DNA of 61,953 nt, the filler included, from Globobulimina sp. (taxonomy: Eukaryota), in assembly GCA_003354225.1 (NCBI GenBank). It is 30 parts of 30 records of this genome, joined end to end, with 100 filler letters (N's around TTAATTAATTAA, not from the genome) between each part and the next. Parts side by side here need not be neighbours in the genome. Positions count along the whole stretch, not along the records: positions 35,181 to 37,148 come from PIVH01010127.1; positions 37,249 to 39,216 come from PIVH01010128.1; 28 more parts are not named here. One strand, given 5' to 3'. The translations under genes and the position numbers were made by a program. The notes under the pieces are model-generated. The model was not told the origin of the DNA and searched no databases. It worked only from the letters and a program-made list of their open reading frames with translations. Numbering within the stretch: position 1 is the first letter of the stretch; every line of letters begins with the position of its first letter. Positions 2,071-55,753 of this stretch are shown here, piece after piece.

Positions 2071-2235
2071 ATTTATATCCATAATACCTCCGATTATGAT
2101 GTATTAATGCTTTATAATCTGAAAAATAAATTATTGGCCGATCCATCCAACAAAGTTATTTATTTACCATAGGTTCGATCTTTTGGTTATGGCCAAAATT
2201 CGCTTACCAGCAAAAAAAGAGCCGTTGTGTTACCA
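2071..2235 (+). repeat. 165-bp direct repeat, copy 1 (copy 2 at 3876-4040)
   Basis: Contig start matches contig end at offset 1805 with two mismatches (2171 A vs 3976 C; 2196 A vs 4001 G). Confidence 0.97.
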
Positions 2236-2688
2236 ACATCGGATAAATACAACGATTCATTGGATTTGGCATCGGCAGTTTTTGCATGCCTCAACACAGT
2301 GAACTCACTGAAGCAACATCTGAATCAATGGGTGCATAGAGCATATTTTTTGAGCAATTTGCATTTTATTTGTAATGCAAAAATATTGAATCGAATGATC
2401 GATAAAATAGAAAAAGATTTTTGTAGATTAGACCGAAATTCGACGACATTGAAAATGAGAATGCAGCGAAATTTAGCGGATTTATCCAAAATACGGCATG
2501 TTCACCATACGAATTCTTTGGGAATGGCCAATGTGACCACTTTAGATACGGATCGCGATGTTGTGGGCATTGAATCAGTGAAATGTGTTTGTGATCGCCT
2601 GTTCTTTGACTTTCTTCATAAAGTTACACGCGAAGTCATCGGCACTGTCTGGAAATGCGCGGTTATTCGCATCCGAACTCGCCCATAA
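2071..2688 (+). pseudogene. 3' part of the gene that starts at 3354; this copy has an in-frame TAG at 2170-2172
   Basis: Reads IYIHNTSDYDVLML...YLP*VRSFGYG...RAVVLP then TSDKYND...RTRP*; the same codon is TCG at 3975-3977 in the other copy. Confidence 0.65.
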
Positions 2689-3021
2689 TGGATCTTCTTG
2701 ATCATTGACCACCAAATTGTTCGTACTTAATTGTCTTAATCTTTTAAATGCCGTTCTTGAGTCTGTATCTTTTGTTAACGAGAAACCATAACGTTTCCCT
2801 TTCGACGAATCTGTCGCGTTGACCACTTCTTCATGTTTCACGAATTTAAAACCAATATTAATGTTATCATATTTATCCATTAATTTCTTTGATATTGTTG
2901 CATATGGTTCAATCGCTGCTACTTCGCTCACTGGTTTGGTAATATCAATAATTCTTTGTGCTGCTATTAATTTCATGTTGACTCCTTTGAGCGCTTTGGA
3001 TACATTGAAATGAAACGACAT
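2575..3021 (-). CDS. Hypothetical protein (148 aa), convergent with and overlapping the + strand gene by 114 bp
   Basis: Open frame with protein-like composition; no motif recognised. Confidence 0.45.
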   Translation of the reverse strand: MSFHFNVSKALKGVNMKLIAAQRIIDITKPVSEVAAIEPYATISKKLMDKYDNINIGFKFVKHEEVVNATDSSKGKRYGFSLTKDTDSRTAFKRLRQLSTNNLVVNDQEDPLWASSDANNRAFPDSADDFACNFMKKVKEQAITNTFH

Positions 3022-3353
3022 CTTTGTTAATGTTATAATATACTTTTAGTGTTTTCGTAACGACGTCCTTATCAAACAAAAAATACTTTAAAAACTTAAA
3101 AAACTTAAAGAAAACTGTTAGGTAAAATACAGAAAACAATATAATTAATATACACCAATCAAAACCCTTGTTCCACGAATACAACATAGTGTTAGTTTCA
3201 GATTGCAGCTGTTTGCCATCTGAATATTAACATTTTGTTCGTAACCGATATCCATCAAATATTTTACAGCTGCACATATGGAATTTAATTGCGCGAAATC
3301 GCATATCCTGCACACACTCTTAAATCACAATTTTCTGCTTTATTAATTCTAAA

Positions 3354-4040
3354 ATGACATTGGTATTCTCCAATATTTTAATTGCCATTGTCACCCTTTT
3401 TGCGATTGTGAATGGTATCCAATACAATGCATCGACCACATCACCATTAAATACGATTAAACTTATCGGAGGTGATGCTTTTAGAAAGTTTGGATTTATT
3501 GGATTGAAAGAACTGATAATAAAATACCAAAAAGACAACATCATAGAATCGGATGTCGTAACACAAGAATTACAGAAAATTATACGAAAATATCACATGA
3601 ATTACATGATGAGATCAATAAATATGGTCAATTCATTGCATTACAATGTTAGTCTGAATGAAGGAGATTTGGTGAAAGTAAAAGTATTAAAAAAACAAAA
3701 TGATACAGATTTGCAGCGGAGAATTGATTGTATGAATAGTTATCCATTCGGAGTTATTATGAAACATTTATCAGATAAAAATAAGAGAAATCAAACTGAA
3801 ATTTATGTTCAATCGTTGTTTGATGGAAATGTTACACTCCGACTAAGACCAAAATATTTAGAAAGAATTCCTAAGATTTATATCCATAATACCTCCGATT
3901 ATGATGTATTAATGCTTTATAATCTGAAAAATAAATTATTGGCCGATCCATCCAACAAAGTTATTTATTTACCATCGGTTCGATCTTTTGGTTATGGCCA
4001 GAATTCGCTTACCAGCAAAAAAAGAGCCGTTGTGTTACCA
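3354..4040 (+). CDS. Hypothetical secreted protein, 5' part (about 379 aa if continued through the repeat into 2236-2688)
   Basis: Signal-peptide-like MTLVFSNILIAIVTLFAIVNG; frame runs into the terminal repeat. Confidence 0.7.
3876..4040 (+). repeat. 165-bp direct repeat, copy 2
   Basis: Matches 2071-2235 with two mismatches. Confidence 0.97.
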
Positions 4041-4380: not shown

Positions 4381-5874
4381 ATGTCAGTATTAGTGGTAAT
4401 CTGCAGCATATTTTGCGTAACAAAGGCAGCATTAACATGTAATGGCGTAGAACATGTAATTTCGACTGTTACCACGACAACACCAACAGATGTATGTTAT
4501 ACTACCCAAACATCTGTCAATGCTGTCAGTTATTGGTATCAATGCGTTAATAATGAAGTTTATGTACAACAATATTTGCATCCTGATTGTCTCGGTGATG
4601 CAGTAACATTAAAATTTACGGATATGTATGGTAGCATAGCAACATCATTTCAAGAAGCATGTAATTTGGGTGCCTGTCAATATGCAAATGTACGACAATT
4701 TTCAGCTGTATGGAGTGACTGTGTAAACGCAGCAACAGTACCAAATACTTTAGAAACATACGTTGAAACACCGTTCATTCAAAATAAATGTTATAATAAC
4801 ATGGGTTTAAATAGTGAAATATGGACATGTTCGAGCAATAATTTACAAGCAACCTATTCATATTACAGCAGTAGTACTAATTGTAGTGGCTCAGCAACGC
4901 AATCAATAACAATCAATACAAATGAGATTGTCTGCGATAATACAAACAATGGCATTGGCGGCAGCAGCGGTATTCCAATATATGTGACCTGTGGCAGTGC
5001 TTCATTTGCTGGCAATGATAATACATTGGCACCGGTTCCATCCACAACCCCACCAATAATCAATCAATGTACAAATACAGAATTGGATTGCAAAGCAGTT
5101 GAATGGAGCATGAGTGGGATCGTTACAGCCTATCCATTAGATGTGTGTTTTTCCGTTGAGTCGACAGCAAATGGTATAACTACGGGTGTAAGTTATTGGT
5201 ATAAATGTCAAAATGGTGTGCCGTATATTTCGACCTATCAAGCAGCTGATTGCCAAGGTTAATATATATATATTTTGTTTGCATATTTATCTGAAAATGT
5301 AAGGGTATGAACAGGTAACAAGATTGATACAGCATTAGTATCACTATATCCGTTATCAGAATATGTGACAGTTTGTTGCGATTTGGCGCCGTGCGAGTAT
5401 GTATTGCAGAAATCATATGTTTCAGTTGATTTAGATTGTGCGGATTCGGATCCTTCTCCGGCAGAGTTGGAGGCATATACTTCGATACCAATTGTTTCAA
5501 ATTATTGTAATGCAGTTCAGGATTTAGCCAGTTGGAAATGGCGTTGTTTGGGTAATGGTAGCGAAGCCAGACAGGAGTATTTCGTGGGTAATGGTAATTG
5601 TACGGGTGATGCAACAGTTACATTGTATGATATTGCATTGGATGTAAGTTGCGATGACACAAATAATGAGACGGGAGCATCAGTTGCGATAGGATTGCAA
5701 TGTGGGACTGCTTCATTTAATGGTGGTTCAAATACGGTTAAAACATCGAGTACAACGAGTACCTCTACAACGCCATGTCCGTCCGTTGGGTGTATTGATC
5801 AAAGCAAAGCAAATAATAAATATTATGTTTTTGTGTTCTTTTATTCGCAAGTAATGTTCTTTTTTTTGTATTGA
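4381..5874 (+). CDS. Secreted or GPI-anchored Cys-rich protein with two internal repeats; exons 4381-5257 and 5315-5874
   Basis: Signal peptide; duplicated motifs P.DVC...VSYWY.C.N and CG.ASF.G; 57-nt GT-AG intron 5258-5314 joins the two ORFs in frame; Ser/Thr stalk and hydrophobic C-terminus. Confidence 0.8.
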
Positions 5875-8280: not shown

Positions 8281-8458
8281 TTGATAACAATGTGCCGTCA
8301 GAGGATAACACCATTACACACAATATGCCTTCCCCCACTATTTTTGACAATGACTTGGTAAATGCCCCCCAATCTATTACATTGTCCACCACTGCTAACG
8401 CTCCATTGTCATACTTATGCTCTTGTAAAGGCTCTAAGTGAGCTAAAACTGCTGACAT
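8281..8458 (-). CDS. Roadblock/LAMTOR2-like protein (3'-partial)
   Basis: AFTKSLSKIVGEGILCVMVLSSDGTLLS resembles the LAMTOR2 N-terminus (AL...LS....GV...LLL..EG.LL). Confidence 0.55.
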
Positions 8459-8564
8459 GCTCTGAAAATATATTTAAGAGATGTTTATGTGATGCAAAAA
8501 CTCTGTGCTTAAATCTGACATTAAAAAATATATACAAAACATAGTCAAAACAATACAAACAAAA

Positions 8565-9387
8565 TCAACATTCATCAACATCGAATTGACTGATCTGTAA
8601 CCATTTCTTTCCAGCGTTTTTTAGAGGAGATGGGATATTGGGGACTATTGTTTTGATAAATTTCGCATGGTTTGACCTTTGTGCGTCTGTCCACAATTCT
8701 CTATGATATCCCCATTCGTTTACATCTCCATAATACGCTTGTAAACTAATGATATGTTGTGGGTGGGTGGAAACACAATATTCAATTCTGCCAGAGATGT
8801 CTTTTACTGTGATAGTGTGACTCTCCTCCCCTGCCGTTGCTGGAAACTCATTTAATTCTGGAATACCTTTGTATGCAAATATATCCAATCCTGGAATACT
8901 AAAGTCATAATCCTTGGCAATAAAATCTGCGTGATTTATTTTGTAAAGTTTATAAAAACCTCTGTTCCAACCAAATACACAACCCAATACACAACCCAAT
9001 ATCCATGTAGTTTTAAACATGACAAATTCCTTATCTCCAAGTTTAACTAAAGACGCATGCCAACTTTGTGAAAATGAATACCATGAATGTTTGTATTCAC
9101 GTACCGTACCAGCTGGTGTTCCATTTTGAAACAAAGTCTCAATTTTGCACCAATCTTTGAGATGTACAGTTACATCATAATCATCATCATGAGGGAACCT
9201 ACTTTCATTAATTGTAAAATGGGCAAGTGCATTGCCACCTGACAATGAATACAACAATTCATTCTGTTTAGCGTATTTGTGAAACATTATAAATTCTTCT
9301 TCTCGATCTCTCATGTATTGTTTGAATTCATCTGAACCAATCACTAATCTTGAGTGTCTTGCTTTCATTTCAGTACGTGTTATAACC
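8565..9387 (-). CDS. LicD/fukutin-family nucleotidyltransferase-fold protein (last exon)
   Basis: YSLSGGNALA...RFPHDDDYDVTV matches the LicD GG(T/S)LLG...PWDDDxD motif; downstream LDIF strand; CAG acceptor at 9388-9390. Confidence 0.65.
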
Positions 9388-9886
9388 TGGCAGATTAATC
9401 GTAAATATTAATAGCTAATTAAATCAATAATCGCAATAATAATAGCTAATTGACGACTCATAAGTAAAAAAATTTAGTCAAATTTCCGATTTAGGTGCAG
9501 GTACTAGATAACATGCGTTTGGAAAACATCCAATGTTAAGTTAAGTAAAGTTCAATAGTCTTGTTTTCACAGTTGTGAATAAAATAATAAAATAAATAGG
9601 TGAAAGAACCAATCAAAAATAGCAAAAAGAAACAAATTATGTGGATTTCTATCCTTTTATTGATTACTTTATATGTGTGACTGAGAATGTTTCTAACTTA
9701 AAGTTTTTCTTAGTTTTATCTATCTACGCATCTTAAAATTACTCGTTTCTAATCCTCACTAACTATAAATAAATATATAATTACGGTTTGTTATAAACAA
9801 ATATACAAGCCTCTACAGTCACGACCTATTCACGATATAGAGCTGTACCCGTAAAAGAAAAGAAGAAAAAGGTAAATATATGTTCG

Positions 9887-9906
9887 ATATATATATATAT
9901 ATATAT
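9887..9906. repeat. (AT)10 microsatellite
   Basis: Read directly from the sequence. Confidence 0.95.
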
Positions 9907-10350
9907 GCATAATATAAGAAAGTTAAAGTGAGGTACACGTACATAAGTTTGTATATACGTTTTTGAGATAAGTTAAGGATTAGTCTAAGGTATAGAGACT
10001 AACAGCGAGTAGAGACTAGAGCTAGTTCGAGAAATTCTGCCCAAACTAGTATTAGCAATATAAAAATTAAATTAGTGGGCACAATGTTTAACATACATGT
10101 TTAAATAAATAATAAAATAAAAACACCGTAAACATCATATGAGTGGGATAGATATTCTTTAAACGCATTAATATCATTCGCAAAATATACATATCAGCCA
10201 CCTGCCACAATTGATCCGTTATTAGAAATGATTAAAAAAATAATAATCCGNNNNNNNNNNNNNNNNNNNNNNNNNNNNNNNNNNNNNNNNNNNNTTAATT
10301 AATTAANNNNNNNNNNNNNNNNNNNNNNNNNNNNNNNNNNNNNNNNNNNN

Positions 10351-35467: not shown

Positions 35468-35866
35468 CTGTACTTAATATTATTGTTTTCTCTGTGTTTT
35501 ATGATTATGCCCATTCGCTTATGATTGCTACGTAATATTTTCGATAAAATCCATTGTACGAAATTATACGAGGTGTCCAGCTTTTATTTTCGTCCTAGGA
35601 GAAGATACATACTTTTATTTTCGTCCAGACAACAATAACCATTCTGTTTTGTCTATTGTCTTCACAGCAACATATTTACACTACGTAGCAATCATAAAAT
35701 TTTGATGGTATTTATATAAGTGTTGAATCCAAAAACACCGGGAAAACAATAATATTGCGTACAAGTACAGAACTGCCTTAAATAGCCAACCGGTGAGTAT
35801 ACCATGAGCGTCCTCTTAGATTTGGAATCGCCAAACTTACACGAATTGGCTATTTAAGACATCCTG
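35468..35866. repeat. Nested inverted repeats forming a structured non-coding element
   Basis: Perfect stems 35476-35490/35742-35756 (15 bp), 35519-35534/35682-35697 (16 bp) and 35777-35789/35846-35858 (13 bp); 15-bp direct repeat at 35581 and 35612. Confidence 0.8.
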
Positions 35867-36071
35867 TTTTCGCTGATTGGTCTGACAGTAAATAAAGGTA
35901 TACATTTATTGCCATATACACAAACTTTTAGGAGCATTCTCATCACTTATTCCGTTCGCGCCATTTAACATTAATGTCATTATCAACCAACATAATATAG
36001 GCTTCGAGCACATTAGAGCAGAAAGTAGCAAGTTAGTGAAGTTACTTGGAAAACATTTTTCGAACATAGAG

Positions 36072-37016: not shown

Positions 37017-37249
37017 TGCAGTAAATATGATACGTTTCTATATTTTGTTTATATTTTAAATATCATTAGCAATGTAATTCGTAGATGAATTAACTCGAAA
37101 TAAATTATTTCTTTGTCATTAATCGAACGGGTTCATTGAAGGAATAAGNNNNNNNNNNNNNNNNNNNNNNNNNNNNNNNNNNNNNNNNNNNNTTAATTAA
37201 TTAANNNNNNNNNNNNNNNNNNNNNNNNNNNNNNNNNNNNNNNNNNNNA

Positions 37250-37423
37250 AATCGCTACGTTGAGCTCCAGAAACTTTTTTATGGACCTTTGTTTGCCTGG
37301 GCAGGTGAGGGCGACAAAAAACTTGAGCGACTAGCCGACTATATTCAAAAGGAGGCTAAAGGAGCTCGTCCGAACCGACCAGACAAACAAAGGTTTATGC
37401 AAGTATATGTGCGCATAACATGA
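37250..37423 (+). CDS. Hypothetical protein exon (5'-partial); may splice 37403-37483 into the 37487 frame
   Basis: Open frame NRYVELQKLFYGPLFAWAGEGDKKLERLADYIQKEAKG...; no homology recognised. Confidence 0.4.
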   Translation, partial: NRYVELQKLFYGPLFAWAGEGDKKLERLADYIQKEAKGARPNRPDKQRFMQVYVRIT

Positions 37424-37671
37424 CCGAACTCGGCTAATGCATAAAATAGCAGTGGCATTGGTGCGGCGAGGGTGTGTCTCTAGGAGATGCGCAAGCTCTG
37501 GGCCCGCCGTGAAACGGATATCCATATTATCATGCCTTTGTCTAATGTAATTAGTGAAAGAATATATGTATTTCGAACGTTTGAAGGCAACAAGGAGGCC
37601 GGGAGTAGCCGAGAGGCGACGAACGGCCGAAAAGCCGGAAATAAGCGAGAATATTGTAAAACAAAACAAAA

Positions 37672-37745
37672 TAGTTCTGGTGAGAATCGAACTCACTTCC
37701 TCGAACGCACTAGGTCCGATGCACTACCGGTAGTGCTACAGAACT
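37672..37745 (-). tRNA. tRNA-like gene, nominal anticodon AGT (Thr), non-canonical
   Basis: AGTTCTG-TA-GCAC-TACCGGTA-GTGC-A-TCGGAC-CTAGTGC-GTTCGA-GGAA-GTGAG-TTCGATT-CTCAC-CAGAACT-A; all four stems pair; B box GTTCGATTC; TTTT immediately downstream. Confidence 0.8.
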
Positions 37746-37826
37746 ACAGATTTCTAAAGCATTAATACTGCGTTTATAATGTGGTTATAAAACTTAGCTT
37801 TTATGTCATCAATAAATAGGTTGAAT

Positions 37827-38334
37827 CTATTTTGAACATAAAATGTTTTTGTACGAATTGGATAATTTCAGCCACACCCATTCGGCTCCTTCGGCTATTT
37901 TTGGATTCAATGAACCACACCATGTACAGTTTGAAATTAAATCGGTTCTTTCCTCGTAGCATCGGTTGTCGCAATTCCAAAATAATTTTGACAAACAATA
38001 ATTGGCTGTTCCGTCTTGTACAGTGCGAGATAGGCAGTGGCTGAAAATGTTGACATACATTTACTGCATAAATTATACACATTTCTTACTAAAATAATGG
38101 GAAAGTGTGGTCAGGGAATGGGATCTTCGGAGTCAAACTGACGGTGTAAGGAGGATCGAAGGGGTTATCGGACTTAATATGAGTCAAAAAAGTGGCATAT
38201 TCGACCTTGGTCAATACAATAGGCAAATTTTGTGGAACATTAAACAATAGGATTCGGCCATTTTTCGGTTTGACAGAAATACCACAATTTATTTCGTTTT
38301 GTAAAAATAAGGGAGTGTAGCTGTGTTTGAACAT
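37827..38334 (-). CDS. Orphan Cys-rich protein, 152 aa; exons 38334-38090 and 38040-37827
   Basis: 49-nt intron GTAAGA...TTTTCAG (38089-38041) joins two ORFs in frame; a second GTAAGT...TTCAG segment lies in the 5' leader. Confidence 0.7.
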
Positions 38335-38418
38335 TTTGCGTTGCTACACTGAATTAAAGTTAAGCTTTGCTTGATTAAATATGCGGCCTCACGACTTACA
38401 GTTTTTGTTAAGTTTTAA

Positions 38419-38450
38419 GGGCGGAGTCTTCTTTATTGATTGTCACGTCA
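38419..38450. promoter_or_regulatory. Candidate bidirectional promoter: GC box and CRE/ATF-like site
   Basis: GGGCGGAGTC (38419-38428) and TGTCACGTCA (38441-38450) between divergent ATGs at 38334 and 38503. Confidence 0.5.
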
Positions 38451-38502
38451 TTTTGCCGATTAACTTGGGCGCCCTTTGACATTTCTAAAAAAGATATTGG
38501 TC

Positions 38503-38748
38503 ATGTCCGGTCGTGTAGAAAAGAAAGAGTATATGGTAAAGAAAAGTTAAATGTAGTAAATTAATAATTTTGCCCTAATTTAGTTGCAAGTTGTGGCCAC
38601 TACCGAAGAGGTTACTGTTACAATTTCCAGCCCATTTTACGACCCTATGGAAGGAAACCGATTGATAGTGAAAAGAACCAAAGATTTGAGCGAAGAAAAC
38701 GTTCTTAGAGAAACCATAGAAATTGTCAATTTGAAAATAGCCGATTAA
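38503..38748 (+). CDS. Orphan small protein, 65 aa; exons 38503-38535 and 38584-38748
   Basis: MSGRVEKKEYM|LQVVATTEEV...LKIAD*; 48-nt GTAAAG...TTTAG intron; AATAAA at 38763. Confidence 0.6.
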
Positions 38749-38880
38749 TATTTTACACAACCAATAAAAAATATCACAATTCTGTCTACTATACATCGAA
38801 GTTGTCTCACTTGCCAAAAAAAATTTGCATCGATGGAGCAATGAAATCTGTTTTTATAAAAACTCCCAATTTCGAAATAG

Positions 38881-38957
38881 GTCACATGACCGTCTAGACG
38901 TTCTGTCTGGAGGAGGCGGAGCCTGGGAAATTTTTGTCATTGTTAGAAAAAATGGCC
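38881..38957 (+). promoter_or_regulatory. Candidate promoter: E-box, GC box and YY1-like motif
   Basis: GTCACATGAC (38881-38890), GGAGGCGGAGCC (38912-38923), AAAATGGCC overlapping the ATG at 38952. Confidence 0.45.
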
Positions 38958-39216
38958 ACCTGGAACGACGACTGGCGATTCGACGGATCCAACGTCAAAG
39001 TGGGATAGATAATTAAGTTTTTTGTAATTAATAAAATTAATTTAGGTTTGCGTAAAGTTCGGGGAACGAGACAAAGAGGTTCAATTGATGAGACGAAGAG
39101 GTTCAATTCCATAAGACGTTTCTTGACTTTCAGATCATTGACCGACAAAAATCTGTCCTGAACCGAAGCGGCAAGGCTAAAACATACTCGTTTCAAGAAA
39201 TTTGGTCTAGACCGTC
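38952..39216 (+). CDS. Orphan protein, 5' part; introns 39000-39045 and 39079-39133
   Basis: MATWNDDWRFDGSNVK|VCVKFGERDKE|IIDRQKSVLNRSGK...; 46- and 55-nt phase-0 GT-AG introns keep the frame open. Confidence 0.55.
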
Positions 39217-41464: not shown

Positions 41465-43024
41465 ATGATGGCTTCAGCAATCACAGAAAAGGATCCAGAG
41501 GTGTCCACGGTTGAAGATCCATTAATGGGTACTTCTGAAATATTATACAGACACTGTCATGAACTCGATGATAAAAAAGACGAGGAAAAAGATGAGGAAG
41601 CGGAGGAGGAGGAAGATACGGAGTTGAAAGATGCGGAGGATACGGAGGTGAAAGATGCGGAGGATACGGAGGTGAAAGATGCGGAGGATACGGAGGTGAA
41701 AGATGCGGAGGAGGAGGAGAAGGAGGTATTTACGGTTGAAAAGTGGATTCCCATGCATTTAACGGCGATAGATTCGGCCAGCCGTAATCGGTTATTTGCC
41801 AAGTGGCTCGGTATCAAAGATTTACCAGATAATTGTCAAACCAAAACAGTTATTACAGCCGTGCTTGATCTAAATGTCACTTTTGAAGATTTTGATGAAA
41901 TGACAAAAGAGTTTGATAAGTTTGTTGAAATGAAAGAAGATTTTGATGAAATGAAAAAGAATGGATGTCCCATATGTCTTAAGCTATTTGATGAAGGTGA
42001 CGATGTTGTTGAAGATGACGTTGTTGCTGCGCTCTCCGGATGTTCTCATCTTTTCCATAAAGGGTGCATTGATATTTGGAAATTGGTTAAGTGATCCGTA
42101 TGCGATTAAACATGCATATAATACAATACATATATACAGATAGCCAATCAGTGCCCTATGTGCAGGACGAGATTTACTTATATTGAACACAGAGCGGGTA
42201 CTCACAGTTCACACAGAGAAGCAGTATCAGATGCTGAACAGAAAAACGATGATCCATTAATGGAAGATTACGTGACCGGTTTGGATGAGCAACCGTGTTC
42301 TATTTGTGAAGGAATGGATCAATCTGAATTAGCTTTATTATGTGATGCATGCGACAAATGTTTCCATACATTTTGTGTTGGATTAGCTGATGTTCCAGAA
42401 GGTTGTTGGTTTTGCGATACATGTTCAATGTTACTGTTTGACTGTGTCAGTGTCAGTGACAGCGACAGTGACTTCAATCTTGAACAAGAACAAAGGAAAA
42501 AGAAAGGAAAAAGGAAAAGAAAAGAAAGGAAAAAGAAAAAAAAAAGAAAAAAAAAACGGATTGAACTGAGCAATCAACATAATAATAATCATAATGATAA
42601 TCATAATCATAAAGATATCGACAGCCTTGTGAAGATCGTGGAAATCTTACAAATGGAAAATATCAGCCGTGACAAGAACAAATATGACGAAAGGAGGAAA
42701 CAGAGGAAAAAACAGAGGAAAAAACAGACGAAAAAATATGTTTCTGTAGTGAGAAGGAAAAGGAAAAGGAAAAGGAAAAGGAGACAGGCGACACACATAA
42801 TACCAATGACAAAGAGGAGACGATTAACTAATAACAATGACAATAACAAAAATAATAACAACAGCAAAGATGAAGCGGATGCTTTTATTATGGAAGAAAT
42901 TTATGATTACAACGGCAAAGAGGAAGCGGATGATTTTACTATGGAAGAAATTTATGATAACAACGGCAAAGAGGAAGCGGATGATTTTACTATGAAGGAA
43001 ATCTATTATACTAATGATAAATAA
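41465..43024 (+). CDS. RING-H2 and PHD finger protein (PHRF1-like architecture); intron 42086-42139
   Basis: CPIC...CSHLFHKGCIDIWKL|IANQCPMCR completed by splicing; PHD CSIC...LLCDACDKCFHTFC...WFCDTC; basic NLS-like tracts. Confidence 0.88.
41615..41710 (+). repeat. Coding minisatellite, 4 x 24 bp (DTEVKDAE)
   Basis: GATACGGAGGTGAAAGATGCGGAG tandem copies; first copy has one mismatch. Confidence 0.95.
42864..43016 (+). repeat. Coding minisatellite, 3 x 51 bp (KEEADDFTMEEIYDNNG)
   Basis: Units start at 42864, 42915 and 42966. Confidence 0.93.
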
Positions 43025-43978
43025 CGATTTGACGGTTTTCATGTTATTTAATATTTAATATTTAATACATAGTTTTTGGGTCTTCACAAATTTTTGTAGT
43101 ACTTCGACATCTTTAATCATGCCAATTCAAACAGGAAGGCAGGCCAGAGAAGAGGAGAAAAAATTCAAACAAGAAATGGCGGAATCCGGAAAAAAATATT
43201 ATTACTTTAATTATTCGGAAAAGACTAAATTAGCAACGTGGCAATTTACAAATTATTTTATAAATGAAAAGTTGAACTTAAATCGTGAGGTGTGTGCGAA
43301 GAACGGTCAAAAAAGGTTAATTTATGCAAGCAAGCATGTTAAAAACGAAGANNNNNNNNNNNNNNNNNNNNNNNNNNNNNNNNNNNNNNNNNNNNTTAAT
43401 TAATTAANNNNNNNNNNNNNNNNNNNNNNNNNNNNNNNNNNNNNNNNNNNNAAACGGTGAACACATGATTTGTTATGATGATGTGATCTTGACTAAGTTT
43501 TGGAATAGTTTTGAATTAAAATCTTAAAATCAGGCATCATGTGTTAATATAACAGTGCGGGGTTCTAATTATTCCACCAATCATTCTAAAACAACGTGAT
43601 GTTCCTTGCAGCTGCAACTATATTTTGTAATTATCACTGTTTACGATAAATCGCATCACCGATATCGGACATTGACATTTACATTTTACAATTCGCAAAC
43701 TAATCATTTCATTATCAAATTGAATTAAACATTAATAAAGTGCACAGAAAACATGTTGAACACATTAGTAGCAATATCATTGTGTATGAATGGGATAATT
43801 GGTGATCACAAAATATCTGACCAATCCTCCAGACGATAAGAAAAATATATCCGGATCTGAAATTACCAATCGATTCGAATCCGGAGCCGCAAACTCCCGC
43901 AGTGCTGTCATCGCCGTATCAGAGCCTCGACCTCCAAACACCAAAAGAAGGAACAATCCCATCACCACAAGCAACAAT

Positions 43979-44393
43979 GAGTCAACAATCCGGTACAACA
44001 TCTACCAATGCATCAGTAGTAGAAACAGCAACGAGGTCAGAAATGGGAATGGTTCAACAACCTGATGTTGTTGCTGAATCGCGTCGAAATGAGCGTGAAC
44101 GAAGTATAAAAGAATGCGAATTTTGTTGTTGTTGCAAACTAAAAAAATATCATTCAGTTCGCAGAGATAATAAACGTATACATACAGCCGGCGGTGGTAA
44201 TGGTGGTCAAGATGATGAAGGAAAGATTGTGATGCAATTTTGCCGTAGAAAATGTGGAGAGGTTTTAAAAAAATGTGCAACAAAGGCAACAGCAAAACTT
44301 TGTGCAGCAGGCACGACTGTAATTAGTGGCATTGTGTACGGACTTTCATGTCATAGCACTGTTTTGGAAGCGCTGCCTTTTTGTGTTTCTTGA
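43979..44393 (+). CDS. Small Cys-rich hypothetical protein
   Basis: MSQQSGTT...CEFCCCC...; hydrophobic C-terminus. Confidence 0.45.
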
Positions 44394-44598
44394 TTCATTT
44401 TTCTGTTTTCTTTTGATGTTTTAAATTTAGAATTGTTTGCACGTCACCCAATCGATATCCATACAGTCGCTTTTCACTGCTAACAATTTATATAAATTAA
44501 AGCACCAATGCACCTTGCGTTTAACATTTACACCTTGCGTTTAAAAATTAAAAAAAAACGTTTTCTAAAGTGAATGATCAAGTATAGTGGGGGAACAT

Positions 44599-45418
44599 TC
44601 AGCCAGGATCTAAGTCTGGCTCCATGCTCACCGATTGCTTAAACATCCCGGCGAGAGAGTAAAGTTGATTGGGTATGATACCCTGGGGATAGAGGTAGGA
44701 TTTGTATTTAGCGTATCTGATTGAATTGAAATTTGTTGTGATTAAGTTGGAGTTGCGGGGATGTTGCCGTCCTATATCTGCAAGAATGTCTGCAATTTGG
44801 TTGAAAGGCTGTTGGTAAGGTTTGGTATGTGATTTCACCTTCCAGAGTATGATTTTGTTGCGTTTGATGTAATTTTGTGTGTTTTTGAACAGGATAGATA
44901 GCGGTTTCTTATTTGAATGTTTTGGGGTGATTATCAATGGTAGGAAGTTAAAAAGGGAATCAGTGAATATTAGAATTCGTCGATTGGTAGTGTCTATGTT
45001 GCAGTGATTGATGAGGAATTCTGATTTATGAATGGCATATAGTTCACCATAGTGGTTGGACTGCGGTCCTATTGGTTGTGCAAAGCAGTGTATTTTATTT
45101 CTGTTTATTATGCATATACCGATACCTGTGGTGTTTGTTTGTGGGTCGCGCGAAGAATTTGTGGCTATTATCAGGTCATTGGTATTAATTTTGTGTTGGT
45201 AGTACTGCCATTCGTTGAAATTATCATTACGTATATGGTACATTATCATTTTTGAAGGGACTAAGTTGTGTTTGCATTGGATACGCTTTATGGTGCTTCT
45301 CCCATTATTTATATCGAGTGTGTGAGTGAGCCAACGATGAGTTTGGGATATTACTTCTTTGTATAAAGTATGTTTGTTTGTATTAATATTTATTTGTTGG
45401 TGTGCATAGGCAAACTTA
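44599..45418 (-). mobile_element. 3' end of a non-LTR retrotransposon ORF: C-terminal RNase H-like domain
   Basis: IATNSS...GIG, NHYGELYAI, IFTDS, LWKVKSH, NQIADILA; frame open to the contig end; ends in DPG*. Confidence 0.8.
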
Positions 45419-49552: not shown

Positions 49553-49782
49553 NNNNNNNNNNNNNNNNNNNNNNNNNNNNNNNNNNNNNNNNNNNNTTAA
49601 TTAATTAANNNNNNNNNNNNNNNNNNNNNNNNNNNNNNNNNNNNNNNNNNNNTTTCTAAATATCATGTACAACAGAAACATAATTTATTTCATGTACAAA
49701 CATACCTGAGAATCATCGCTATTATGTGTTGAAAGAATTTTTGAATTCCATTCAATTCTCTTTAATCTAGCCTTATATTATC

Positions 49783-51619
49783 ATGCTTAGTTCCGGTACT
49801 ACCTTAAATGAGTACAAACAGAGTATTATCGAGGACTTAATGGGTGAATTAAATATTGTAACATCTCAAAATGAGCAAAATGATTTTGATACAAATATGT
49901 TTAACATCCAAGCAAATCGAGAAACGGACGAAAATAGTGCCGTATTAAATAATTTTCCACAGCAATCAGATATGAGCGCAAATACTGAAATTAGTGCAAG
50001 TATAGCACCGGTAAACAATGACGAGAAATCCGATGATAATCAGAGTAAAAACGCATTTAATTCGGATGTTTTTAAAAAAAATCAACAAGAAATGCAAATT
50101 AGTACATTTATAAACATTATAAAAAAGCAAACGAGTGCAAAAATCACCTACGATGAGGCTCGTCGTATGTTGACGTATTGCAATTGGAATGAAAAAATAG
50201 TAAATAAACTCGTTGGAAATGGCTGTGTTGGTCGACAGGAAATGGCGACCTGAAATTAACAGGAATTGATAATAATAATAAAAATGGGCCACCATCCACC
50301 AACAACTATAACTTATGATGGATGGCCCCAAGCAAACACACAGTCATTTAAGTAGTCATCGCAATGACTTCTCTCGCGATGATGGTATTGTTTTAGATGA
50401 GAAGTGTAGTTACGATAATTATCCTCGTTTGGATAATATCGCAACTTTTGATTGTACAAAATTTGAAGAAAAACAAGATTTTATTCTGAATAATCAATGT
50501 TTAAATGATATCAATCATAATACCGTTGATTCGACATTATTTACGAATGAATTTGATCCTATTATTTACGAATGTGAATATGAATTAAAAAATGAGTCAC
50601 TTTTAACGCGCAAAGAAGGTCTCTTGATTTGCCAATGGAGTGTCGATGGATTTACGGTCAATGCGCGATCGCATATTCATTACATTATTTTGACTAAAAA
50701 ACCAGATATTTTCTACGACGACGATGAGAGTGAATGGACAGTAAAAATTAAGAATTACACCACAATTATAACCAAAAAGAAAGGATTTGGAAAAGTGGTT
50801 ACTTTAATTCGGAATGGCATTCATTACGAACGTATAAATCTAAATTTTAAGCATAATGCACAGATTGATAAACAGATCGAAAATCTGGATATTAGCACCG
50901 AAGATGGCCGAGATAGAAAGAAGAAACTTTTGATGTCGAAAATTTATATTTTGACACTAAAAATATATAATAATGATATGGGACAAGCGTTCATTATAAA
51001 TAATTATTATAGGCCTCAGAATGGAGCACCGGGCTCTAATATTGAATTATTGTTAAACTACTTAGAATTGCTCAAAAAAACAAAGAATTACGGCACATTC
51101 ACTATATTTGTTGGGGGTGATATGAACGCCCACAATAATGCCTGGTTTGATGGGTATATCAGGCCCTCAAAGGCAAGCAAGCAGGGATTAGTTTTGGCGG
51201 ATTGGATTTATGAGAATAAGTGGAGTATATTGAACGATAAACACGCAACGAGGCAAAGAAAGACGCAGCGGACTTCGCCGGATGTATCTTTTATAAATGA
51301 TAAATTAAAAGAGGATGATTGGGAGTTCTGGGCAGAGGATTTTACGAGGGATGACCCGGAAAAATATTTCTCTGACCACTTAGCTCTGTTTTCCTTTTAT
51401 AAAAAGGGAGATTTGTATGAAAAACCGGCGCCAGAATTTATGATTAGAACTGGATCAGACAGAGATTGTGATCAATGGAAGAAGCAGCTATCTGAAAATG
51501 TGGAGGAATGGCATGACATTTATGGGAAAGATATAAATAAATTAATAGATTGCTATCTTGATACGTACGGGAATGGTAATTGTGATATTAACAGAGATTA
51601 TTTATTAGATTTTGTCGGA
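49783..51619 (+). mobile_element. LINE-like element 5' part: short upstream ORF (49783-50253) and ORF with APE endonuclease (50315 to contig end)
   Basis: ICQWSVDG, KPDIF, GKVVTLIR, NYYRPQ, GGDMNAH..AW, ILND..AT, SPDVS, SDHLAL. Confidence 0.82.
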
Positions 51620-52359
51620 NNNNNNNNNNNNNNNNNNNNNNNNNNNNNNNNNNNNNNNNNNNNTTAATTAATTAANNNNNNNNNNNNNNNNNNNNNNNNN
51701 NNNNNNNNNNNNNNNNNNNTGACAGCAAACACGTATAATTATCGGCAAAAACTACAAAACAAATCAAAACGTAAAAACGAGAAAAAAATAAATTATAAAC
51801 CCATTCAATCCGCACGCAAACATGTAACTAATATTGTGCTGGATGCAACCATTCAAAAACATTTAAAACCTAAAAAAACATATAAATGCCCAAAAACTGC
51901 CCGATTGACATATTCAAGATCAAGTAGGAAAAATATTAACTATTCAAGTCCGAAATCAGCACAAAAAACATCGAAACATAGTGTGAAAATTGTGTCTCTC
52001 TTAGATATTAAAAGTCCATCGTATATATTACGTGCGTCCAAAATATATAATCATAAAAAGATATTTCGCCAAAATAAAATATAAAATTTTAAAACTATTT
52101 TCTGAGTGCTTTTGTTGAAGCATTTTCTGACTGTCATTAATTGTAATATGATATCTTGCTTTTTGTGCAAGCTAGACTTAGCTAGTCTTACTGTATAACT
52201 TTTTAATATTTGTTATAAATGAGTATACAAAATAAGTTCATTGCTTCTATTTTTAGTTGATTTCTTTTTGTTATTTTCATTTTTCTTTTAGCAGTTTTTT
52301 GCAGTGAGCGACCATTCTCTTTTTGATTTAATAGTAAGTTGTGATTTAAATAACAAATA

Positions 52360-53786: not shown

Positions 53787-55753
53787 ACCAAACAAAACCA
53801 ACCCACCGCACTGCCATCATCGTTCTAACTCGTCGCCAGCCCCAGACATTTCACCATTGAATAAATCATGCAGTGCATTGCTTGATTCCTCACCCATATA
53901 CAAACAACCACCGTCCCTACAGCCCTCACTGTCGATGAGTCCTCGCGACAAACGCAAACACCACGGCCACTCAGATAATCACCACCAGCACAACCACCAC
54001 ACCAATGGTAGAAAACGCAGTGCGTCTCATAAGAAACACACCCACCACAGCACCAATACTCCTGTTGCTGACCTGCCTAAAGACCATATCCTCGAAGCCT
54101 ATAAACGCAGATTAAAACGCAAAAAATTAAACCGTTCACGTTCTATGAACAGCAATGGCATCGCCACCTTATTAAATATCGAAAAACAGCGCATCACCAC
54201 AGATAAATGCAGTCGATTATTCTACGATTTTGAGTCCACCAAATCGACGATTGATAAATCAGAACGTGATCAACTTTTTCGTAGTAAATTAGCCAAATTG
54301 AACGAAAAAAAACAGAAAAACAAAGCCTTTGCATATGAACTAATCCGACAATATTTCACCTCCATTTTGGATAAAAAATATAGCAATCATCCCTTAGCTT
54401 TACTGATTACAAAATTTTGTAATTTATTCCACGGGAAATACTCTTTTTGCCCTCAAGATTTCAAAAATAAATCCATATATCAAATGTATGTATATATTGT
54501 GTCTCAGATACGTGCGAGGATATTTCTGTGTTTTTTGTTGTGTACCGATATACAAAGTGTCGACCAAAAACGCATGAAACGCAAAGGAAATAAGCGCAGC
54601 ACCACGGACATATTTGGTGACAGCGTCAATAATATGAAGAATCAGAGCAAAGTGGTACGGAAAACGAGTCGGCGGTTAGACAAAGCCACTGAAGACGTCA
54701 AGAATTTTGTCAATAAATTGCGTGCGTTGATGTTGACTTTGTATCCCGAGTTAAAAGCGTTGCGAACGTATAAATATGTGGTACAATCTGTATTTCATAA
54801 AGAATTATTTGGACAGTTGACGCCGACATTGGGTGATTTGTATTCCATCAGAACCGAAGATAAACAATCCTCGTTTGCCAAACACATGGGAATGTGGCAG
54901 AATTTATCATGTAAGGACTTTGGTGCCAGTGAGGCGTTTATCGAGTTTTGTTTGGTGCCTTCGTTGAGACCGTGTCTGTTGAGTGAGGTTGGCGAGCACA
55001 AGGAAACCGAAGGCGGTCTAACAACGGAGGAGGTTGTTACGCAAAGTGAGAGTAAGGATGGAGGACATGAGGTTAAGTGACATTTTTAATTTCTTAGTGG
55101 AAAACTTTTTTACAGTGAAAATGTCAACTTTTTAATTTTCAAAGGTCCACTTAAATGCAATAACAGTCGTGTCTACACATTCACCATTAAACCTGGCGGA
55201 TGTTGACGAAGAATGGGACGAGAAACAAACTGAACTGATCCGTAATGCAGAAGAAATTGATAATATATTAACGGAACAAAATTTGAAAGAATTTGATCAA
55301 AATTACGCAATTTCACAGTTACTGAATGATAATAATACATTGAATAACAATGCTAACTTCACCCGACCAGAATATGTGAATGAATATAACTGTGAATTGG
55401 ATGAAGATAATGAATCATTTATAGATATTGTAAGTAGTGGCGGTTCATCGCAAAGAGGGTCAAATAATACATATGATAATTCATTACCATATTCGTCGCA
55501 TAATACCTCTGAATTAAGCTATCCACCACAAACAAAAATAAATACACAAAACCGTACTATATTACCACAGCTAAATGATGAAATATCTGTGAATAAAACC
55601 AAACCAATCTCCAAAAGCAGAATAAGTTCAATTTTCAGTGCATTGTCTCGCAAAAAAAAGCGTAACAATGAACGTAGCAATTCGGCTGATTCGAAACCAA
55701 CCAAATCCGATTCAAGAAAAACACCACAACAGTTTTTAAAAACGAATTTTAAT
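53787..55753 (+). CDS. Probable alsin/VPS9D1-like Rab GEF, region preceding the VPS9 domain (partial, spliced)
   Basis: HPLALLITKF...Y, A.EDVKNFV.KL...LYPEL, LF.QL.P.L..LY resemble the pre-VPS9 helical region; VPS9 domain itself not seen. Confidence 0.5.

Follow-up and report, generated by a model that had tools for sequence, protein, structure and literature searches.

We analyzed a 61,953-base window from the Globobulimina sp. assembly GCA_003354225.1, in which 30 unrelated contigs of 1966-1970 nucleotides (nt) are joined end to end, separated by runs of N around a TTAATTAATTAA spacer. One contig, at 37249-39216 (PIVH01010128.1; 1968 nt, GC content 0.392), is a real, compact, intron-rich fragment of a eukaryotic nuclear genome. 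On balance, we lean slightly toward the view that it is nuclear DNA of a second eukaryote, itself compact and intron-rich, that was sampled together with the organism supplying the other contigs; we infer the separate organism from dinucleotide composition and third-base use, from the acceptors and density of the introns, and from the occurrence of the contig in one of three sequencing runs. An earlier note on this DNA had called the contig foreign-looking. These observations speak for that description and fall short of proof, and GC content and principal component analysis (PCA) of k-mers do not set the contig apart.

The majority genome, as the term is used here, is represented by the other 29 contigs of the window only. 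They are AT-rich (GC 0.24-0.42), and each carries at least one open reading frame (ORF) of at least 130 codons. Ordinary eukaryotic Pfam families were found in 17 of their 36 long ORFs, among them HIBADH, MMS19, biotin-protein ligase, malic enzyme, RCC1, PPR, RING/PHD, an endonuclease of the long interspersed nuclear element (LINE) type and RNase H. Comparison of contig 37249-39216 with these 29 contigs by blastn and tblastx revealed no significant similarity.

Composition, splice signals and occurrence in sequencing runs

In dinucleotide relative abundance, contig 37249-39216 is the most deviant of the 30, with AA/TT at 1.27 (at most 1.22 in the others), AT at 0.88 (at least 0.95) and CA/TG at 0.99 (at least 1.10). 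The deviation is present in exons and non-exons alike, and in the other contigs long-ORF and remaining DNA agree with one another, with CA/TG at 1.25-1.30. Under leave-one-out Markov models of orders 2, 3 and 4, the contig had the lowest score of the 30 each time (z -2.9, -3.6 and -3.5). Third-base use pointed in the same direction. At four-fold degenerate sites the counts of T/C/A/G were 37/36/39/13, compared with 91/157/151/165 in the four ORFs of the other contigs with the highest GC at third codon positions (GC3; chi-square P = 1.7e-5), and GCG, ACG and TCG together made up 2 of 53 codons here versus 89 of 302 in the GC3-richest ORFs elsewhere. Thus, the third-base pattern differs even from that of the GC3-rich genes of the majority genome.

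The splice signals differ as well. All four introns modelled on the contig end in TTTAG or TTTCAG, compared with none of the eight candidate intron loci on the other contigs, where the candidates have A/C-rich ends (...ACAG or ...AAAG) that lack a T-run. The reverse holds for the GTTAA(G/T) donor, which is present at five of those eight loci and at none of the four here. The candidates on the other contigs were chosen by a parsimony filter, which replaced a noisy, broad enumeration of GT...AG pairs, and one of them restores what we take to be a RING-H2 motif. On contig 37249-39216, three exon-intron-exon patterns of AT-poor, AT-rich and AT-poor DNA have canonical GT...AG ends only on the modelled strand. 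With four introns in 1.97 kb, compared with eight candidate loci on all 29 other contigs, the apparent intron density is ~15-fold higher here, although the thresholds for flanking ORFs differed (at least 100 codons there and at least 50 here). The retrieved portion of one study reports a tendency for consensus signals to be strong where a genome is poor in introns and weak where it is rich in them (PMC2483917), a trend that matches the contrast between this contig and the others. Window-wide, TTTYAG was not enriched (86 occurrences, 100 expected), and a literature search on the GTTAAGT donor returned nothing relevant.

The contig also has a restricted distribution among sequencing runs. In a comparison that covered contig 37249-39216 alone, without a majority-type control contig, the share of its words present was 0.74 in run X1 and 0.00 in runs X2 and X3, which derive from the same sample and are larger than X1. 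Consistent with this, X2 and X3 contained no pieces aligning to the contig. In X1, word depth ranged from ~1.6 to 34 and 36 pieces aligned, 11 of them at least 99% alike, 16 at 95-99% and nine at 90-95%; the pieces that are 90-99% alike indicate diverged haplotypes or related individuals. No RNA run was among the runs with the contig, and its DNA was found in no other indexed public run.

A possible explanation, though a distinctly less probable one, is that this contig and the others come from a single genome, of which it represents an unusually gene-dense and intron-rich part with small genes, for example a compositionally distinct chromosome or compartment. A number of observations favor this and weigh against a second organism. 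The contig is not separated by GC content or by PCA of tri- and tetranucleotides, in which it lies at the GC-rich end with the contigs starting at 1, 33113 and 47586; the tetranucleotide binning suggested in the earlier note, tried as PCA on the 30 contigs of the window, therefore did not single it out. Nor is it an outlier in being less AT-rich, as had been stated: three other contigs have GC of 0.39-0.42. Similarly, the supposed lack of an asparagine-rich style did not hold, with asparagine at 6.4% here and at 3.9-18% in the ORFs of the other contigs. The synonymous-codon score under a model of the other contigs was 0.028 for genes A and C and -0.031 for all four gene models, which is low but within their range (minimum -0.073; 5th percentile of 217-codon windows -0.076). 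The Markov fit of contig 8281-10250, the second-worst, is almost as bad. The other contigs, too, have short candidate introns (54-82 nt); all of these are parsimony candidates, with alternatives at three loci, and the donor contrast taken alone has a one-sided Fisher P of ~0.07. One GTTAAGT heptamer, the donor type of the other contigs, lies at 38407-38413 in this contig, where ~0.2 per contig is expected by chance. Among the long ORFs of the other contigs 19 of 36, about half, have no Pfam family; because orphans are so frequent there, orphan status does not discriminate. The presence of the contig in X1 only could reflect patchy coverage of a single genome. Finally, the retrieved text of the same study provides a precedent for two intron regimes in one genome, Ostreococcus, in which an intron-dense region with relaxed splice signals lies within an intron-poor, strongly constrained genome (PMC2483917). 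As far as that text goes, and by analogy only, this mirrors the contrast between the contig and the others. However, no physical link joins the contig to the others, and two larger runs of the sample do not contain it. A single genome must also accommodate the lowest score at all three Markov orders, three extreme dinucleotide classes in exons and non-exons, the third-base use, and T-run acceptors at four of four introns compared with none of eight.

Several other contigs have features of their own. Contig 8281-10250, which may also be foreign, contains a 280-amino-acid (aa) ORF on the minus strand (8565-9407) that has no Pfam family. Candidate introns of the majority type with GTTAAGT or GTTAAT donors lie at 42086-42139, 5258-5314 and 55072-55144 and on the contigs starting at 51720 and 20699. 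The first and last 165 nt of contig 2071-4040 are 99% identical at a spacing of 1805 nt, and an ORF spans the junction, which would make this contig a unit of a tandem repeat or else a circular element of ~1.8 kb. Retroelement fragments are present at 43452-45418 (RNase H domain in an ORF at 44602-45417, minus strand) and at 49653-51619 (LINE-type endonuclease in an ORF at 50312-51619).

Genes and introns of the contig

The features modelled on contig 37249-39216 are as follows, in window coordinates.

37250-37423, plus strand: fourth ORF, 57 codons, entering from the contig end and overlapping the hairpin
37280-37400, plus strand: hairpin of 120 nt with basal arms of ~20 bp (37285-37300 and 37379-37394)
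37658-37671, minus strand: T-runs TTTTGTTTTGTTTT directly 3' of the transfer RNA (tRNA) gene, with a T4 run after the discriminator
37671-37746, minus strand: tRNA-Thr(AGU) gene, from ARAGORN and Rfam
37827-38040, minus strand: gene C exon 2, cysteine-rich, coding 38040-37830 (70 codons plus part of a split codon), TAG stop at 37827-37829
38041-38089, minus strand: gene C intron, 49 nt, AT-rich, GTAAGA...TTTCAG
38090-38334, minus strand: gene C exon 1, 245 nt, the longest supported exon of the contig, ATG at 38334
38335-38502: divergent intergenic region between genes C and A, 168 nt, with GGGCGGAG at 38419-38426 and a sequence resembling a cAMP response element (CRE), TCACGTCA, at 38443-38450
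38349-38399, minus strand: candidate leader intron of gene C, 51 nt, GTAAGT...TTCAG
38503-38535, plus strand: gene A exon 1, 11 codons from ATG
38536-38583, plus strand: gene A intron, 48 nt, GTAAAG...CTAATTTAG, acceptor TTTAG
38584-38748, plus strand: gene A exon 2, coding to 38745, TAA stop at 38746-38748
38763-38768, plus strand: AATAAA, 14 nt past the gene A stop
38894-39216, minus strand: alternative antisense ORF, 106 codons
38952-39216, plus strand: tentative gene B, exons at 38952-38999, 39046-39078 and from 39134 to the contig end
39000-39045, plus strand: gene B intron 1, 46 nt, 17% GC, ending in TTTAG
39079-39133, plus strand: gene B intron 2, 55 nt, ending in TTTCAG

Gene A, whose spliced product has 65 codons, provides the clearest case for protein coding. 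Run X1 contains a diverged copy with listed differences from exon 2 at 38601, 38604, 38616, 38619, 38640 and 38709. All six are synonymous third-position changes, while 22% of possible substitutions would be synonymous (P ~1e-4), showing that gene A is truly coding and under purifying selection. The first in-frame ATG of exon 2 comes only after five of the six. Accordingly, an exon upstream has to supply the start codon, most simply through the modelled splice. The same X1 variant has a 109-nt deletion that starts right after the gene A stop and small indels at 38914-38947, all of them intergenic. The AATAAA that had been reported after one of the stops is present past gene A, although the count of this hexamer across the contig shows no enrichment (five occurrences, 3.9 expected). 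A single-sequence model of exon 2 is all-beta and of low confidence.

Gene C rests on a pair of ORFs, a canonical AT-rich intron and the context of its start, which together predict a spliced product of 152 codons that contains no internal stop. Across its exons and intron, X1 shows a single listed variant, the loss of 1 nt at 38084 within the intron. The segment at 38349-38399 could be an intron in the 5' leader of gene C or a chance match. Genes C and A would be transcribed divergently from their shared 168-nt region, which would act as promoter for both, and each transcript would lose one spliceosomal intron of 48-49 nt. X1 variants at 38459, 38461 and 38471 fall in this region.

Gene B is probably a third small spliced gene, downstream of gene A and on the same strand, although the case for it is weaker than for A and C. 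The model begins with the ATG at 38952, has 16 codons in exon 1 and 11 in exon 2, and runs for 54 codons without a stop. Its AT-rich 46-nt segment is canonical as an intron solely on the plus strand. However, three of the four X1 variants listed in exon 3 are non-synonymous on the plus strand, and three of four are synonymous in the antisense 106-codon frame; the 3' end of that frame contains indels at 38914, 38924 and 38947. A 22-nt tandem duplication at 39068-39108 (19 nt, 95% alike) doubles the putative second donor.

The intron lengths of 48, 49, 46 and 55 nt and their TTTAG or TTTCAG ends agree with the micro-introns described in the earlier note. Of the four orphan genes it had claimed, the spliced 152-aa and 65-aa genes were recovered, the partial third is weaker, and the fourth gained no support: the ORF at 37250-37423 has no Pfam family and no homologue, overlaps the hairpin and is of a length common in shuffled sequence.

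We also considered whether most of the gene models are chance ORFs, in which case most of the DNA would code for nothing, and the contig would contain a single genuine small gene together with a tRNA, or a repeat derived from one, and a foldback element. In shuffles of the contig, individual ORFs of 80-130 codons turn up frequently (the mean longest shuffled ORF has 100 codons), a 130-codon ORF crosses the tRNA gene, and the fourth ORF overlaps the hairpin. The non-synonymous variants in gene B exon 3, the low-confidence structure models, and the raised depth and paralogues of the tRNA region fit this explanation as well. We nevertheless consider it very unlikely. Purifying selection acts on gene A, and the canonical GT...AG ends occur only on the modelled strand. 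Long ORFs are also enriched: the contig has eight of at least 75 codons, whereas 500 shuffles averaged 2.7 and never exceeded 7. Moreover, none of the five indels listed in run X1 falls in a plus-strand exon: four of them, together with a 109-nt skip, lie in modelled intergenic or intron DNA and the fifth (37612) lies in an unannotated stretch adjoining the tRNA gene.

Among 496 windows scanned across four contigs, the hairpin at 37280-37400 is the most strongly structured, with the lowest z. It folds with -51.7 kcal/mol on the plus strand (z -6.85), a value that none of 200 shuffles matches, and the fold is weaker on the minus strand (z -4.6; G-U pairs). A 16-nt repeat with 94% complementarity was detected in its arms. 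The hairpin has no Rfam match, and from its fold could be a small-RNA precursor or other structured RNA, or a foldback element. Next to an RCC1-repeat gene on one of the majority-type contigs is a second strongly structured stretch of 120 nt (35751-35870, minus strand; z -5.8, -39.3 kcal/mol).

Animal-type promoters, which had been read into the DNA just upstream of the starts, were not established. When the motifs of the contig were counted against 300 shuffles, the GC box (1 occurrence, 0.34 expected) and CANNTG E-boxes (10, 13.7 expected) were not enriched, nor was TATAAA. The CRE-like octamer occurs once (0.07 expected), a count reached by 18 of the 300 shuffles. The motif that rises above chance is GGCGGAG, present twice (0.06 expected; one of 300 shuffles), at 38420 and 38915, in each case shortly before a start, and six times across the window (0.96 expected); this motif was picked post hoc, after the data had been seen.

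The tRNA gene and searches for relatives

The tRNA-like gene reported in the earlier note is a tRNA-Thr gene with anticodon AGT. ARAGORN drew a canonical 7/4/5/5 cloverleaf with a 7-nt anticodon loop, and the match to Rfam RF00005 scored 49.8 bits, above the gathering score of 29, over model positions 1-71 of 71. U8, G18 G19 and the T-loop UUCGAUU are retained. Three positions in the alignment are unusual: the pair A1-U72, U at consensus position 14 and G at 37. Cytosolic tRNA-Thr normally has G1-C72, A14 and A at 37, where a purine suits ANN codons. We take a threonine tRNA with A34 to indicate a eukaryotic nuclear context. The T-run directly 3' of the gene is a probable RNA polymerase III terminator, judged from its position, and the tRNA would be transcribed by RNA polymerase III and stopped there.

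Further copies of a stretch made up of the tRNA and ~130 nt 3' of it (37544-37753) occur in run X1, with six differences and then different flanks, which argues that the tRNA belongs to a small dispersed family. Word depth in the same run reached 14 over the tRNA region, compared with ~3 alongside. A 27-mer from the tRNA was absent from viral, metagenome and prokaryote-genome contigs.

The proteins, which had been described as orphans, remained so in every search made, and the small proteins have no relatives among ~15 billion public proteins. The queries were translations of single exons and not spliced full-length products, which lowers sensitivity. Five exon translations matched no Pfam family, and one of them (P0004) gave two sub-threshold matches (E 0.047 and 0.068). 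A word-indexed search of 5.8 billion proteins, weak for short-exon queries, found no match for P0003 and P0002 (longer proteins) or P0005 (similar length). HMMER returned 0 matches for P0004 among 1.84 billion representatives. In the ESM Atlas, P0003 had no usable match and the best score for P0005 was 0.88, below a useful level. Sequence searches of the PDB gave one match at E = 0.91 and otherwise none. A metagenome locus reached from P0005 (L001) was rejected; the similarity is a chance octapeptide inside a 498-aa bacterial ORF. AlphaFold2 single-sequence models were of low confidence, with a mean predicted local distance difference test (pLDDT) score of 59.7 for P0005 and 44.4 for P0003. 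Ordinary orthologues from a known animal, which the earlier note had named as grounds for dropping its proposal, were not found for the exon queries in the protein searches. A tiny-genome animal, one of the two sources it had suggested, was not borne out either: the searches found no metazoan or other protein relative, and the tRNA is atypical.

The other suggested source was a virus, which here would be a large DNA virus infecting a eukaryote, with a tRNA gene of its own and reliant on the host spliceosome. Genes for tRNAs are found in some giant viruses, and spliceosomal introns in a few. The contig resembles tRNA-carrying large DNA viruses in its dense, short orphan genes, its short intergenic spaces and the tRNA gene within 2 kb, and no piece of it has a cellular homologue. 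It differs from them in having neither viral relatives nor hallmark genes: P0003, P0004, P0005 and the tRNA 27-mer had no relatives among 2.9 million viral contigs, a blastn search with the contig as query gave no match among phages and plasmids, and no capsid, packaging ATPase or DNA polymerase gene is visible in the 2 kb, as had been noted before, nor any Pfam family. All modelled protein genes are spliced, and to our knowledge such an intron density is far above that of known viruses. The tRNA copies with different flanks in X1 are, furthermore, what is expected of a cellular tRNA family. We therefore rate a viral origin as very unlikely, the least probable of the explanations considered.

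Likenesses to known genomes and what the contig means

Nuclear DNA of a second, co-sampled eukaryote, the reading we slightly favor, invites comparison with known compact genomes. Nematode introns have a length mode of ~47 nt. The contig resembles Caenorhabditis-type genomes in its introns of 46-55 nt, its T-run plus CAG acceptors, high AA/TT in the absence of CpG depletion, and the same-strand genes A and B ~200 nt apart. In C. elegans, according to the retrieved portion of the study cited above, introns match TTTCAG and poly-T is concentrated in the last ~10 nt (PMC2483917). However, the contig has no protein relatives there, TTTCAG is present in two of its four acceptors and its donors are weak matches to GTAAGT. 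Its tRNA, with A1-U72, U14 and G37, is also unlike a typical metazoan cytosolic tRNA. Thus, the intron length and acceptors that the earlier note had called typical of nematodes do fit nematodes and are not diagnostic of them.

A likeness to microsporidia such as Encephalitozoon cuniculi, parasites whose compact genomes have short introns with the branch point adjacent to the 3' splice site, lies in the density of about one gene per 0.5-1 kb, the small and highly divergent orphan proteins, and the position of the intron near the 5' end in genes A and B. The same portion of that study states that all E. cuniculi introns contain TAAYTT, with CTAAYTT in 9 of 13 (PMC2483917). TAAYTT lies a few bases before the AG in two of the four contig introns and in the candidate leader intron, much like the branch-point motif of E. 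cuniculi, and TGACTT is found in another. By contrast, E. cuniculi is described there as intron-poor with strong GTAAGT donors (PMC2483917), whereas the contig's genes are all spliced and its donors degenerate, and the protein searches found no microsporidian homologue. Neither the nematode-type acceptors nor the TAAYTT motif is diagnostic, and no homologue backs either.

We propose that a second eukaryote was present in one library of the sample and that a fragment of its genome was co-assembled, so that the contig would lie outside the AT-rich, intron-poor genome with long ORFs that supplied the other 29 contigs. On this fragment, genes C and A would flank a shared region, gene B would probably be a third small spliced gene downstream of A, and the tRNA gene would be a separate transcription unit. 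It is rather unlikely that we have here a first glimpse of an unsequenced, very compact, intron-rich eukaryote (for instance an intracellular parasite, a symbiont or prey of the main organism), and a spliceosome-using DNA virus is less likely than that.

A 2-kb fragment with orphan genes opens no larger question on its own, and its interest is modest, mainly as a flag of a mixed assembly. The assembly probably holds DNA of more than one eukaryote, in which case genome-wide statistics and gene catalogues drawn from it would need binning first. The contig also serves as a small worked example of how foreign eukaryotic contigs whose genes have no homologues can be flagged by the style of their splice signals, their intron density and their dinucleotide signature. 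Sister contigs, if they exist, could identify an unsampled organism with a compact genome that is associated with the main one.

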